Origin: a virus
Length of the DNA stretch: 64,000 bases
Strand: one strand, 5' to 3'
IMG/VR virus record: IMGVR_UViG_3300045988_135167
The stretch's first letter is position 1; each line of letters begins with the position of its first letter. Positions 20,352 to 30,448 of this stretch are shown here, piece after piece. Both the position numbers and the translations under genes were made by a program. The notes under the pieces were generated by a model. The model did no database searches. It had not been told where the DNA came from and saw only the letters and a program-made list of their open reading frames with translations.

Positions 20352-20379
20352 CCGGAATGTTCCACGTGGAACATTCCGG
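20352..20379. promoter_or_regulatory. 28-bp perfect palindrome CCGGAATGTTCCACGTGGAACATTCCGG just upstream of the polymerase gene
   Basis: Read directly; same TGTTCCACGTGGAACA core recurs at 28825-28850 and 30433-30448. Confidence 0.45.
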
Positions 20380-20387
20380 GGTTGGAA

Positions 20388-20657
20388 TTATGCCTGTGCG
20401 GAGTTGAAGTTCTTTAAATGGCAGAGGAACTGGCCGGTATCCGAAACAGCGGTTTCATACTGAATCACGCTGTACCGCTTGGCAAAAGTCTTGGACTTCT
20501 TCCCGGCGGGGATGGTGTACACCACTTCCAGGTCCCCCTTTTCGGAGACGACGAAGCTGGCGGCTACATTCAATTCACTGATTACCTTCAGGTTCTTTTC
20601 AATCTCCGTCAACTGGAGCTGGCGAATGGTGGTCTTAGGTATTCTGGGATTCCACAT
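20388..20657 (-). CDS. hypothetical protein (89 aa)
   Basis: ORF track. Confidence 0.35.
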   Translation of the reverse strand: MWNPRIPKTTIRQLQLTEIEKNLKVISELNVAASFVVSEKGDLEVVYTIPAGKKSKTFAKRYSVIQYETAVSDTGQFLCHLKNFNSAQA

Positions 20658-21006
20658 CTGAATAGATTCTAATGATTCGGGAAAGGGTTTCTTCGCTCAA
20701 GGCTTCCCGGAGCCGCGTATGGGTTCCAAATCCACGCATGTAGGAGATGGTGAAATGGTAGGGGCCTTTGAAAGATGAACAGTTGATGTGAACGACAAGG
20801 GCTTTCTCCATGTCCGGACTGAAATCCTCGCACCCGGCGAGCGGGGCGTAAAGCCCCTTGATCACGTCCGGATCATGGACTGTGGAGAAGGAATAGGAGA
20901 GCTTCTGAACTATGTGGTCAATCTTTTTGGAACTGGCCGCAATGACATCGGCAACAGAGAGAATCCATTCCTTTTCTTCAGGCGTTAAATTGTCGTTCGC
21001 ATCCAT
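20635..21006 (-). CDS. hypothetical protein (123 aa)
   Basis: ORF track. Confidence 0.4.
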   Translation of the reverse strand: MDANDNLTPEEKEWILSVADVIAASSKKIDHIVQKLSYSFSTVHDPDVIKGLYAPLAGCEDFSPDMEKALVVHINCSSFKGPYHFTISYMRGFGTHTRLREALSEETLSRIIRIYSDVESQNT

Positions 21007-21050
21007 TGTTTAAAATCATCTTATCGGGTGCGATTGGATTGTAAAGCCTA

Positions 21051-21701
21051 TTATAAATCTTTCGTATAGGGTTCAATGTCAAAGATAAGGAACTCAAAAG
21101 AGTTGAGCTTCATCCAGCTATGCAACCTGCACGCCAGCAGACGGATCGGCTTCTGGGCATGGCGGCTGGTGCGGAGCTTCAGAAAGTGCCGGAACTCCCG
21201 CAGATTCATGGTGACGTAAATCTCGGACTTGGTATCCTGGGGGAGAACGCCGCGGGCATCTTCGGCCCGGATTCCGGCTTCCAGGAGGTCCTGGTAGCGG
21301 ATGGCCGCTTCCCGGCAGGAATCCACCCAGACCTTCCGGACTTCTTCATTGGCGAATGTTCCAATCGGCGGTTCGATAAACACCACCTGGTTCTTGTACT
21401 TGCAGTAGCGCATGGACTCCTGGGAATAAGAAGCAATGCGGTGGCGCACAAGCTGGTGGGTGACTGCCCGGTTGGTCACCATCCGGAAGGAAATGGACGC
21501 ATGCTCCAGAACGCTTTCGTGCCCGCTTTCAATGAGGCGGCGAAGAAATGCTTCCAATGGGGTCTTCCCCTCGCTCTGGTAACAGCAATGGCCCGCACGG
21601 GCGGCAATCTGCAACTGGTCAACGAGAGCATTGGGAGTGGTCAAGACATCCACGTAGGGAGCCATTATCATTATATTTTCTTGATTATTATTCATATTCA
21701 A
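21051..21701 (-). CDS. thyX: flavin-dependent thymidylate synthase ThyX
   Basis: 216 aa; ThyX signature RHRIASYSQESMRY (RHRxxxxxxxSxR). Confidence 0.8.
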   Translation of the reverse strand: MNMNNNQENIMIMAPYVDVLTTPNALVDQLQIAARAGHCCYQSEGKTPLEAFLRRLIESGHESVLEHASISFRMVTNRAVTHQLVRHRIASYSQESMRYCKYKNQVVFIEPPIGTFANEEVRKVWVDSCREAAIRYQDLLEAGIRAEDARGVLPQDTKSEIYVTMNLREFRHFLKLRTSRHAQKPIRLLACRLHSWMKLNSFEFLIFDIEPYTKDL

Positions 21702-22178
21702 TTACTTAGGGGTGTATAGAGTGCAGTTATCCGAGTTTCCCTTCTGGGGACAGGAATAAAAAGGCTTGTCAATGCTTTCATCATAAATGCAGGTAGTGCA
21801 AGGATTGCCCGGGGAATGACGGAACAGGCAATTGAGCTTCTTATTTCTCAGGATTCCCTTGGCCATTTGGTAGAGCTGTTCGTGAGTCTTTTCCGGGAAG
21901 GACTCCCGGAGAGTACACGCCAGGGCATAACGTCTCCGAAGAATCCGCATCTTTTCCTCCACCGCTTTCTCCGGATCGATATTCAGCAAATTGAACATCC
22001 GGGCCAGTACCAGAAGGCAATCAGCCAGCTCATAGCTCGGATCGGCCGAGCCGGGGACTTCCTCCAGCTCCTTCAATTCCTCCCGGAGCTTTTCAATCAT
22101 CTCCGGGAAGGTGTCGTTGAACCCCAGGGACAGGCGGTCCCGGCTCAACATGCGTGCGTGTTCCAGTATTGTTTTCAT
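21702..22178 (-). CDS. mazG: MazG-like nucleoside triphosphate pyrophosphohydrolase
   Basis: EELKELEEV...ELADCLLVLARM matches the MazG/HisE EExxE...E..D motif pair; all-alpha small protein. Confidence 0.6.
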   Translation of the reverse strand: MKTILEHARMLSRDRLSLGFNDTFPEMIEKLREELKELEEVPGSADPSYELADCLLVLARMFNLLNIDPEKAVEEKMRILRRRYALACTLRESFPEKTHEQLYQMAKGILRNKKLNCLFRHSPGNPCTTCIYDESIDKPFYSCPQKGNSDNCTLYTPK

Positions 22179-22249
22179 GATTTTGGTCTGCGGACGAGCC
22201 AGTCGATGATGGCTACAATAGCCGCGATGATTAAAGCTTCAAGTACCAT
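22175..22249 (-). CDS. 24-aa hydrophobic mini-ORF (MVLEALIIAAIVAIIDWLVRRPKS) overlapping mazG start as ATGA
   Basis: Hand translation; single predicted TM helix; below the ORF-track size cutoff. Confidence 0.3.
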   Translation of the reverse strand: MVLEALIIAAIVAIIDWLVRRPKS

Positions 22250-22420
22250 AATTACTTCTTTTTAAAATTGTTGTGAAGTTCTCCTTCTCTTTCGTCACTA
22301 CAAGGATTCCAGTTGCAGTTCTTACAAAAGCCGGACTCCTTGCGGGAACACCTGGGACAGTGGGAACCGCCCCAAAGGAAAAGGATTCCTACTATTCCCA
22401 TTACCAACAACCATATTGCT

Positions 22421-28916: not shown

Positions 28917-29162
28917 ATGAAGCCTATCATTACATTCTGCAAGCCGGACCTTTCCGGAAAAATCGCGCCCCTTTGTGGCACGATGGATTCCTATTTGGAC
29001 GACGGCCGCCGCTCCCTGGAGTCCATTAAACAATCTGCATGGGAAGAATTGAAGCGACGGAACGCCCATTCAAAAACCAATTATGCCGGGTTTGTCATTT
29101 ATAATGCCATTTCCTTCCCATGGCGCACCGTGTACAAAACCCATGAAGAAATTGAGGATTGA
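28917..29162 (+). CDS. hypothetical early protein (81 aa)
   Basis: ORF track. Confidence 0.45.
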   Translation: MKPIITFCKPDLSGKIAPLCGTMDSYLDDGRRSLESIKQSAWEELKRRNAHSKTNYAGFVIYNAISFPWRTVYKTHEEIED

Positions 29163-29200
29163 ACCTTTAATTTGAAGGAAAAAGCATATATCTTTGAATC

Positions 29201-29398
29201 ATGATAACTTCATATATTCCCCCTTGCCTTCAGCGGTCCGCGCGTGAATTGGAGCTTGAACTGGCAAAGACCCGGTGGATTCAAGCCGTTGAATACCTGA
29301 AAGAAGAAATTGAAAATAACAAGCACGACAAGCGGAAAGTCCGCGCCTTGCTTCAACGGCTCCGGGATCAATATTCATGGAGGCCTGCTATTTATTAA
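29201..29398 (+). CDS. hypothetical early protein (65 aa)
   Basis: ORF track. Confidence 0.4.
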   Translation: MITSYIPPCLQRSARELELELAKTRWIQAVEYLKEEIENNKHDKRKVRALLQRLRDQYSWRPAIY

Positions 29399-29538
29399 AT
29401 AAAAAATAATGAACAAAAAGCTTGCAATCCGGTTCAAGCAAGCATAGATTGAAAGCATCAACTGAGGCGGCCCGCCGCACAGGGCAATCCAAATCCGGTT
29501 ATCACCGGAAAACTAAAATCCAAACCAAAAACTAATTT

Positions 29539-29952
29539 ATGAATACTAAAGAAAGACGCACAGAAGACCTTCTAAGGGCATTTGGAATTCGATTTTCTAA
29601 ATTTAAATTAGGTCTTAGAATCCCGCCGCACTGGGGCGACTGTCAAGATCGTCACATGGAATATTTGGTACGGTTTGAACGATTGAAGCCGCGGAGGGGC
29701 GAAAAAGATGTGTTAAACGTTTTATGGTACGCTTCTTTACTGAGACCAAATGAATGCACAGCGTTTGACGTTCTGACTACCTTGACTAAAGAAAAGTTCG
29801 CCGATTTTGAAGATTTCGCGGATCAACTTGGTATGGATTATTCCAAAAAAAGTTACAAGCTTTACAACGCCATCCAACAGGAAGCGGAAGACGTGATAGC
29901 TTTCTTTTCCCGTGAAAATGAATTGAACTTAATTTCTACCCTCGAAGACTAA
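29539..29952 (+). CDS. hypothetical early protein (137 aa)
   Basis: ORF track. Confidence 0.45.
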   Translation: MNTKERRTEDLLRAFGIRFSKFKLGLRIPPHWGDCQDRHMEYLVRFERLKPRRGEKDVLNVLWYASLLRPNECTAFDVLTTLTKEKFADFEDFADQLGMDYSKKSYKLYNAIQQEAEDVIAFFSRENELNLISTLED

Positions 29953-29954
29953 AC

Positions 29955-30410
29955 ATGAATCCATTAGTACAAAGAGAATTAGGCTTGCTGATAGTATCCG
30001 TGTCCATGAACCTTGATGGAACGGGAACACTGACTTTTGATCACAAGCATCGCGGCATGCTCAAAACCATGTCATTTCCGAAACTGCCGGACGCGCTCAA
30101 TATGCAGGAACGCATTATTCGTTATACCTGTGAAAAATTGAATAGGGTCAAGTCTTCAAAAGGGCATGTAGTCAACTTTTTTAGGCTATCTCCTTCTCTT
30201 GTCATGGTGAAGGCTCCCATGAACTATTTGACAATGATACAGGGAGATGGACAAAAGCTTAACGTTGATTATGCGACCGCCTTGTTTGCCGAACTGAAAG
30301 AAGGTAGGTTGGTTTCCGATTTTTTCCCGATTCCGGAAGAATTGGAAGTTGTTTATTACAAGGTGGAAGATGATCATCTTGTCATGGTGATTGAAGATAA
30401 GTCACGCTGA
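29955..30410 (+). CDS. hypothetical early protein (151 aa)
   Basis: ORF track. Confidence 0.45.
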   Translation: MNPLVQRELGLLIVSVSMNLDGTGTLTFDHKHRGMLKTMSFPKLPDALNMQERIIRYTCEKLNRVKSSKGHVVNFFRLSPSLVMVKAPMNYLTMIQGDGQKLNVDYATALFAELKEGRLVSDFFPIPEELEVVYYKVEDDHLVMVIEDKSR

Positions 30411-30432
30411 ACCCTTAATCCCTCCGGAAAAT

Positions 30433-30448
30433 GTTCCACGTGGAACAA
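30433..30448. promoter_or_regulatory. third copy of palindrome TGTTCCACGTGGAACA (flanks imperfect)
   Basis: Read directly. Confidence 0.45.

Follow-up and report, generated by a model that had tools for sequence, protein, structure and literature searches.

Chromosomal-type parS palindromes in intergenic spacers of a human-gut phage without detectable ParA or ParB: candidate loading sites for host ParB

Which protein reads a perfect palindrome that recurs, letter for letter, in separate intergenic spacers of one phage genome? The window considered here is a 64,000-nucleotide stretch of viral DNA (IMG/VR record IMGVR_UViG_3300045988_135167), which forms part of the human-gut metagenome contig OIXG01000251.1 (67.9 kb). 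An initial annotation of the window had noted three intergenic copies of the palindrome, taken them for the operator of a dimeric regulator and named two winged-helix proteins encoded in the window as possible binders. We found the 16-mer TGTTCCACGTGGAACA in three exact copies, all of them intergenic as annotated, where any single 16-mer is calculated to occur ∼1.5e-5 times exactly per 64 kb by chance. Allowing up to 3 mismatches gave 5 matches in the window against 0.30 expected from shuffles, adding just two weak matches to the exact copies. The best explanation overall, which we hold to be probable rather than certain, is that these are chromosomal-type parS sites that recruit the ParB of the host, with partition as the foremost candidate purpose.

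ParB and parS form a near-universal bacterial chromosome-segregation system, in which ParB (Spo0J) is loaded at parS as a CTP-dependent clamp and is the known binder of this sequence. In Pseudomonas aeruginosa and P. putida, exactly this 16-mer is the parS variant validated by experiment (PMC7022226; PMC4368675). The general chromosomal parS consensus is TGTTNCACGTGAAACA (PMC4368675, PMC7022226), and the phage 16-mer differs from the T-type consensus at two symmetric positions. We scanned 185,579 bacterial species genomes with the 18-mer WTGTTCCACGTGGAACAW and obtained at least 120 loci in at least 10 phyla, compared with ∼35 expected by chance (calculated), often as clusters of 2–5 copies within a few kb. 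All open reading frames (ORFs) up to 2.5 kb from the genomic matches were clustered, and Pfam was run on the representatives. An origin-region marker was present within 2.5 kb in 79 of the 120 loci among the matches listed, and the neighbours recorded across these 120 were GidA/MnmG (42 loci), ParA (25), GidB/RsmG (23), ParB (22), MnmE (13), RecF (10) and DnaN (8). This recurrent gidA/gidB/parA/parB/mnmE/recF/dnaN neighbourhood is the chromosomal origin and partition region. Because the genomic neighbours are origin and partition genes and the match to published parS is exact, we read the palindrome, by its sequence, as almost certainly a chromosomal-type parS centromere, the site of ParB/Spo0J. 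The initial annotation had allowed that it might be no more than a palindromic repeat frequent in the host genome. It is indeed common, being present on most bacterial chromosomes, yet as a functional centromere and not as a junk repeat. Half-parS sequences were not enriched (11 extra copies of GTTCCAC against ∼9 expected and 4 of GTTTCAC against ∼9 expected).

Each of the three window copies occupies a short spacer between co-directional genes and forms the core of a longer palindrome (Table 1). The perfect 28-bp and 26-bp palindromes of sites 1 and 2 are as first annotated; at site 3 the exact core is present, but its coordinate (30432–30447) had been placed one base off and the extended palindrome is imperfect, with one mismatch and a 2-nt bulge. 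On the ∼69.3-kb circular map there is also a fourth exact copy, outside the window and ∼190 bp from its position 1. All four copies are 8–13 nt downstream of a stop codon. Site 1 begins 8 nt past the stop of an 89-aa ORF (20388–20657) and ends 18 nt ahead of the ATG (20333) of PolA, the family A DNA polymerase gene, confirming its annotated place directly upstream of the polymerase. Sites 2 and 3 each lie 13 nt past a stop, of a 31-aa ORF (28716–28811) and a 151-aa ORF (29955–30410), respectively, while the 319-aa gene before site 4 has its stop 9 nt away; beyond site 4 come a T-rich tract and then a strain-variable tail-fibre gene (518–827 aa across strains). The earlier reading overlooked this shared post-stop-codon position, as well as the covarying flanks of the palindromes described below.

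Table 1. Positions of the parS-type sites and of other features of the phage genome. Coordinates are those of the window, except those prefixed L351, which are those of a locus that holds the part of the genome outside the window.
Feature	Position	Strand	Description
parS site 1	20352..20379	-	core 20358-20373 in 28-bp perfect palindrome CCGGAA-core-TTCCGG
parS site 2	28825..28850	+	core 28830-28845 in 26-bp perfect palindrome CGAAT-core-ATTCG
parS site 3	30424..30453	+	core 30432-30447 in imperfect 30-nt palindrome CCGG-AAAA-core-AT-CCGG
parS site 4	L351:3951-3982		exact core L351:3959-3974; 30-bp perfect palindrome GGGGAAA-core-TTTCCCC
Family A DNA polymerase (PolA)	18516..20333	-	immediately downstream of site 1
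Origin-like non-coding block	26840..28424		between divergent replication (-) and early (+) gene blocks
Second hairpin after site 2, AAAA + GGCGAGGTTTTAATCTCGCC	28863..28882	+	12 nt downstream of site 2
Second hairpin after site 3, AAAA + GGCAGGATTAAAATCCTGCC	30475..30494	+	~21 nt downstream of site 3
Early-gene leader module repeats	28400-28424, 28690-28716, 28863-28916, 30475-30526, 31200-31219, 32572-32619		
Helicase gene with intein	16002-18512	-	836 aa; Hint + LAGLIDADG intein
Giant ORF	38873-48844	+	3,323 aa; strain-conserved, 3,311 aa as called
IS605-family TnpB	13386-14663	-	OrfB_IS605 + Cas12f1-like TNB; structured 3' region
Tad2-like (anti-Thoeris) domain protein	58189-58674	-	candidate anti-defence gene
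Acb2/Tad1-hairpin-like protein	L351:8204-8392		62 aa, weak match; candidate anti-defence gene; outside the window

Three of the sites surround a block with the features of a replication origin. Iterons of the form GCGTTGAA recur there at least 10 times, in either orientation, alongside four AT-rich ATAAAATTTTAT palindromes. Two 31-bp direct repeats, each of which holds a T-type half-parS (CGTGAAAC), lie between the arms of a perfect 33-bp inverted repeat (28073–28105 / 28208–28240). The GC content of the block falls to 0.43–0.45, a local minimum. From the iterons, the repeats and the GC minimum, 26840–28424 is probably the origin of replication; relatives have equivalent iteron-rich blocks with different iterons (GGAACCCAC / CCGTGGAAA). 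Sites 1, 2 and 3 are ∼6.5, 0.4 and 2.0 kb from the block edges, and all three fall within 10 kb, a layout that would mirror the parS-near-oriC arrangement of bacterial chromosomes, the phage origin itself being putative.

The sites were found in more than 20 independent assemblies of the phage from different human-gut samples, and are therefore not an assembly artefact. Site 1 is present in all strain loci examined, site 4 in 10 of 11, and sites 2 and 3 in nearly all. The 16-nt core is invariant in the four copies and in more than 20 strains, while nearby cassettes vary; given this invariance, a coincidence of some hairpin function with the parS sequence is very unlikely. The seeming losses in one strain locus (L262) are N-gaps that start inside the palindromes, and in three Logan assemblies the 1–2-nt indels probably reflect misassembly of the palindrome. 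As a caution for counting such sites, short-read assemblies (L262, L133, L260 and L263) tend to break, with N-gaps, or to lose 1–2 nt inside these palindromes.

The phage has no detectable partition proteins of its own. Hidden Markov models built from the genomic ParA and ParB proteins gave nothing credible in the six frames of the window (E < 10) and nothing in the remaining 5.3 kb (E < 1). Pfam searches of the remaining ORFs revealed no ParB_N, ParA, integrase or repressor domain, and the precomputed Pfam annotation of all strain loci contained no ParA or ParB. Across the ∼69.3-kb genome there is thus no element-encoded ParA/ParB of the kind found in the P1 ParABS and N15 SopABC cassettes. 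Because the phage lacks detectable ParA and ParB, we favour host ParB over the phage winged-helix proteins as the binder.

We propose that, after injection, host ParB dimers would recognise the phage sites, form closed CTP-dependent clamps there and then spread along the adjacent DNA. Loading of ParB would tie the phage genome to the ParA machinery of the host and possibly to SMC, and phage episomes could then be positioned or partitioned to both daughter cells in a non-lytic carrier or pseudolysogenic phase. ParB held at the sites could also damp the downstream PolA, early and tail-fibre genes. Established ParB behaviour offers parallels: ParB–parS recruits SMC, ParB at the intergenic parS3/parS4 sites of P. 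aeruginosa represses adjacent genes, and plasmids that are otherwise unstable are stabilised by chromosomal par operons plus one parS (PMC7022226). Given this plasmid stabilisation, ParB loading would be sufficient to make the phage genome a client replicon. Among the neighbouring genes, PolA would feel a ParB roadblock, repression or hairpin-mediated attenuation most directly. The link between early- and replication-gene control first suggested for this locus is retained to the extent that a bound protein could act on adjacent genes, but the regulator had been misassigned. We rank the possible consequences as episome positioning or partition first, modulation of downstream genes by ParB second and titration of ParB third. 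Functional exploitation of host ParB is somewhat more likely than not, while we put partition as its purpose at less than even odds. The fuller idea of viral centromere mimicry, in which a ParB-less and apparently non-temperate phage loads host ParB–CTP and then ParA and/or SMC, is a real possibility that we place somewhat short of probable; it would provide faithful inheritance in the carrier state and/or ParB-dependent timing of the early, replication and tail-fibre genes.

As to whose ParB would be recruited, distant PolA homologues occur in Verrucomicrobiota and Kiritimatiellota genomes, searches for the host through TnpB and LigA homologues gave no named close matches, and the literature yielded no lead. 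Bacteroidales, Akkermansia and Oscillospiraceae chromosomes all carry this parS variant, which stands beside gidA in Bacteroidales loci and is represented by six parS-like sites within 3.5 kb in an Akkermansia sp. metagenome-assembled genome. Because all three candidate gut clades use this variant, it is plausible that the phage sites are ‘host-type’ whichever of them is the host. Separately, the 28-bp extended palindrome was found in identical form in one genome, at an Oscillospiraceae origin region, with no host link.

Several points weigh against the recruitment of host ParB for partition. The ‘host-type’ label rests on the near-universality of the parS variant; tetranucleotide usage is nearest to Bacteroidota fragments and low for Akkermansia, a correlation that does not discriminate. 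Site 4 lies among tail genes, ∼28 kb from the origin-like block, and site 2 is dispensable in one strain, which has a real deletion of ∼590 bp (L266). No lysogeny or plasmid-maintenance gene was detected by annotation, most ORFs being without one. Nor is it obvious why a phage that is purely lytic and present at high copy should need partition. The ORFans could include a phage-encoded binder of very divergent sequence. Extended palindromy is unnecessary for ParB binding, for which the 16-bp duplex alone suffices. Finally, parS-like sequence is absent from the 13–22 kb around PolA in five relative clades (41–47% PolA identity), and the trait is therefore, within the region sampled, specific to this lineage and not essential to the phage family.

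The extended palindromes raise the further question of a role in RNA. As RNA hairpins, sites 1, 2 and 3 have predicted free energies of −21, −18 and −16.5 kcal/mol, within a four-site range of −16 to −23 kcal/mol. The outer arms differ between sites yet are complementary within each (CCGGAA/TTCCGG, CGAAT/ATTCG, CCGG..AA/AT..CCGG and GGGGAAA/TTTCCCC), and in an ungapped alignment of the four sites five stem pairs are changed on both sides. As 25 of 500 shuffles reach this value, the outer-stem covariation across four sequences is suggestive only. The extended palindromes might alternatively have arisen neutrally, if intra-strand templating around the long perfect core corrected quasi-palindromes there. 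There is no U-tract after sites 1–3 and a terminator consensus scan does not call them, while at site 4 the T-rich tract begins 3 nt past the stem; canonical U-tract terminators are present elsewhere in the phage (1757–1790, 57155–57188 and 38875–38900). Sites 1–3 are thus not canonical intrinsic terminators, and a hairpin role of another kind is possible. Among bacterial parS copies, 19 of 169 have flanks that prolong the palindrome by 5 bp or more, against ∼0.3 expected (calculated), and some of these are clear bidirectional terminators, which suggests that in bacteria too parS often forms part of a hairpin or terminator stem. Because the phage palindromes are extended, covary and stand right after stop codons, we suggest a further role for the sites in the transcript, where they would form intercistronic hairpins that limit read-through or stabilise the 3′ ends of mRNA.

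An element acting at the RNA level only, as an attenuator or terminator, a 3′-end stabiliser or a processing site, would make the parS identity historical; the phage might, for example, have acquired a hairpin-embedded parS from a bacterial chromosome and later duplicated it. The placement of all four copies just past stop codons between co-directional genes fits this explanation, as do the 26–30-bp stems with their different yet complementary flanks, the T-rich tract after site 4 and the extended palindromes around bacterial parS. The common GGAA/GAAA inner flanks suggest paralogous copies, and unrelated GC hairpins hold the same post-stop position in the early intergenic regions 31160–31219 and 32514–32619. 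Hairpin function needs no sequence identity, however, yet the core is invariant while the outer stems differ. The canonical terminators of this phage have U-tracts, whereas three of the four palindromes do not, and the chance that a freely evolving hairpin would come to equal parS is negligible. RNA and ParB roles are also not exclusive, and we consider an RNA role alone unlikely.

The same parS identity could instead serve a decoy. Four sites per genome, multiplied by many phage genomes, would titrate ParB off oriC or misdirect ParA and SMC, and the resulting disturbance of host chromosome segregation, nucleoid organisation or division would benefit the phage. The phage looks virulent, with no lysogeny genes detected, and loss of ParB or mutation of parS leads to segregation and division defects in several species (PMC7022226). 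Nothing points specifically to a decoy, though; titration does not need three sites clustered near the origin, and the pay-off is doubtful where ParB is non-essential, as it is in many bacteria. We regard this outcome as quite unlikely.

An operator for a phage-encoded dimeric regulator, coordinating early and replication genes, was the initial interpretation, and the perfect dyad symmetry and the intergenic positions upstream of PolA and early genes agree with it. That the dyad is a type of site bound by a dimeric helix–turn–helix (HTH) protein holds good; the site, however, is parS and already has a well-characterised, near-universal binder in ParB. The two small putative winged-helix proteins proposed for the role fared poorly: 33868–34158 has no Pfam or PHROG match and no detectable HTH family, and 50367–50645 is weakly MarR-like, with MarR/DUF2250 matches that are sub-threshold (E ∼1e-3 to 1e-4, below the gathering score). 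A divergent ORFan could take their place, most phage ORFs being without annotation. No sigma-70-like promoter overlaps any of the sites in a promoter scan, the fourth copy stands ahead of a tail-fibre gene, and covarying flank extensions are not expected of an operator. A phage-encoded regulator of this kind is improbable.

The variable cassettes near the sites might point to a recombination or mobile-element boundary, with the palindromes acting as short homologies or fragile sites that mediate cassette exchange, or being remnants of a palindrome-associated mobile element. Upstream of site 2, a strain-variable cassette breaks off 3 nt short of the palindrome. Site 4 adjoins the variable tail-fibre gene, which is lacking in a strain (L362) with a breakpoint at the centre of the site 4 palindrome; copies of TnpB, moreover, are insertion-polymorphic. 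These breakpoints could equally be consequences of the palindromes or assembly artefacts (N-gaps, 1–2-nt indels, Logan assemblies), the ends of the TnpB element and its omega-RNA region (13386–13559) do not resemble the palindrome, and parS identity would be left without explanation, which makes this account very improbable. The subterminal hairpins of IS200/IS605 elements were likewise rejected as a source, the palindrome having no similarity to the TnpB element ends. A site for host LexA, repressing the adjacent genes until DNA damage, can be dismissed as having next to no likelihood: the half-sites TGTTC/GAACA are those of the validated Verrucomicrobium spinosum LexA motif and distant PolA relatives occur in Verrucomicrobiota, but that motif is TGTTC-N4-GAACA, 14 bp with a 4-bp spacer (PMC4951493), whereas the spacer here is N6 with an invariant central CACGTG where LexA spacers tolerate change, neither the window nor the relatives contain an N4 site, and the full 16-mer adjoins parAB/gidAB in genomes and not lexA/recA.

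The same parS also occurs in other viral contigs. We found TGTTCCACGTGGAACA in at least 120 IMG/VR contigs, with 47% of copies outside ORFs of at least 100 aa. A control 16-mer of the same composition and centre, TGTCTCACGTGAGACA, was found in 15 contigs (8/15 outside ORFs), and one with the centre swapped, TGTTCCAGCTGGAACA, in 66 contigs (12% outside ORFs). Among the matches listed, the fetched stretches of 120 parS-bearing contigs contained no host origin markers and no ParA, and a weak ParB-like ORF was nearby in 4 of the 120. Orphan parS may therefore be common in phage contigs, and, on the reading as centromere mimicry, the over-representation and intergenic bias of parS in ParB-less contigs suggest a widespread, unrecognised phage strategy. 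In the open-access literature we found no report of a ParB-less phage with host chromosomal parS; the precedents are limited to phage-encoded partition systems (P1, mycobacteriophages, N15) and engineered parS tags. Two further arrangements were seen among unrelated viral contigs. One low-GC IMG/VR contig (L019) has two intergenic parS copies (1505–1520 and 1802–1817) flanked by terminator-like A/T runs, and a family of contigs of 54–106 kb (L013/L030/L068/L072-074/L080/L086) has one conserved parS beside a GGGCTTTTTGCC element. Relatives of the present phage with 41% PolA identity carry a different intergenic palindrome, the perfect 34-bp AATTCCCTGCCTATTTGCAAATAGGCAGGGAATT (L131:2434-2467 and L130:1-26), at which one relative contig ends exactly; this could be another kind of centromere or operator.

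The phage itself is present in well over a hundred assemblies, as contigs of 68–70 kb whose start points differ on the map, consistent with a circular or permuted genome. After minus-strand genes to ∼27.4 kb and a non-coding block of 1.6 kb, the genes are on the plus strand between 28.4 and 49.5 kb and on the minus strand again thereafter. Beside PolA, the annotated products are a VapE-type primase carrying a BT4734-like domain, an intein-bearing helicase, ThyX, an NAD-dependent ligase, a PD-(D/E)XK nuclease, an IS605-family TnpB, a Tad2-like protein and a peptidoglycan-binding protein; nearly all other ORFs are without annotation. The helicase intein is absent in at least one strain (L132), which has an intein-free 481-aa version. 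TnpB is present in 0, 1 or 2 copies at differing places in the replication module (strain loci L132–L139), and its nearest homologues are on other ∼70-kb phage-like contigs. Cultured phages gave no megablast match, and by tblastn PolA identities of at most ∼26% among the matches listed; an IMG/VR search for relatives via PolA found none, and no tRNAs or Rfam matches were found in the phage.

The giant 3,323-aa ORF has no match in Pfam, PHROG, PDB or cultured-phage genomes (tblastn) and no DxDGD motif; its N-terminal half is a long coiled-coil or low-complexity region, and an HEMAH zinc-metalloprotease-like motif lies near residue 1580. The virion RNA polymerase promoter of N4 is a hairpin with a 5–7-bp stem and a 3-nt loop upstream of early genes, and is used by a giant virion RNA polymerase. 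We rejected the idea that the palindromes are hairpin promoters of the N4-like or crAss-like kind, read by a virion RNA polymerase, as the 3,323-aa ORF has no RNA polymerase signature; the stems at the parS sites are 12–13 bp with a 4-nt loop, and one copy stands ahead of a tail gene.

Downstream of sites 2 and 3, a second hairpin belongs to a leader module repeated ahead of early genes. Its order is AAAA with a 7–8-bp GC hairpin, TAAAnAAnCC and then AATAGAAAGAAC, which ends 8–12 nt before the ATG. After site 2 the hairpin is followed by TAAATAAGCCAATAGA and an ATG at 28917, and after site 3 the same module continues with TAAACAAACCAATAGAAAGAAC and an ATG at 30527. The module hairpin, including that at 28863–28882, is a canonical intrinsic terminator when read on the opposite strand, and the module has no Shine–Dalgarno sequence. 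The ATAGAAAGA element is also found ahead of early genes in relatives (L126), after consensus TTGACA-N17-TAAAAT promoters and a 5′ hairpin, and a leader of this type may be a translation-initiation or 5′-untranslated-region element.

If host ParB is indeed recruited, a phage that carries only the host centromere would be a parasite of the chromosomal segregation system itself, whereas in P1, N15 and mycobacteriophages, the known cases of phage partition, ParAB and centromere both come from the phage. It would also make the persistence of non-lysogenic gut phages in dividing hosts, by a carrier state or pseudolysogeny, accessible in molecular terms. ParB is actively studied as a CTP switch that also loads condensin, and with an identical parS the Pseudomonas ParB should bind the phage sites, giving a tractable surrogate and a tool-like natural element. 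More generally, perfect palindromes flagged as phage ‘operators’ are worth checking against parS.

Among known systems, phage centromeres are the first comparison. P1 parABS is a centromere on a phage genome that serves episome inheritance, with cognate parA–parB beside a phage-specific parS. A parABS partition cassette is also described for mycobacteriophages (PMC7157519). To both, the present sites bear a functional analogy only; those cassettes combine their own parA–parB with phage-specific parS, and the sites here are orphan and host-type. The four separate palindromic centromere sites IR1–IR4 of N15 Sop, which form no tandem array (PMC7205306), resemble the present four in arrangement. 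N15, however, encodes SopA and SopB, has a plasmid-specific site sequence and is a demonstrated linear plasmid prophage, whereas the phage described here has host-chromosome-type sites, no detected partition proteins and a plasmid-like stage that is inferred only.

Chromosomal parS of P. aeruginosa and P. putida provides the closer parallel, with the identical 16 bp in multiple copies, three of them here near the presumed origin; as at P. aeruginosa parS3 and parS4, where ParB represses the neighbours, the phage copies are intergenic and upstream of genes (PMC7022226, PMC4368675). Unlike chromosomal parS, they are on a ∼69-kb genome without ParA or ParB, each within a 26–30-bp post-stop hairpin, and one of them is remote from the origin-like block. 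A par-less test plasmid likewise becomes a client of chromosomal ParAB through one orphan chromosomal parS (PMC7022226), although such plasmids are laboratory constructs and the phage case would be a natural viral strategy. The KorB–OB system of IncP-1 plasmids, in which a ParB-family protein at dispersed palindromes controls several operons (PMC7022226), is a model for ParB control of the PolA, early and tail-fibre genes, with the difference that KorB and its operators are plasmid-encoded and of another sequence, and that the phage sites have no promoter overlap. By sequence, then, the sites are of a known parS kind, and what is new is their context as orphan, phage-borne and hairpin-embedded parS.

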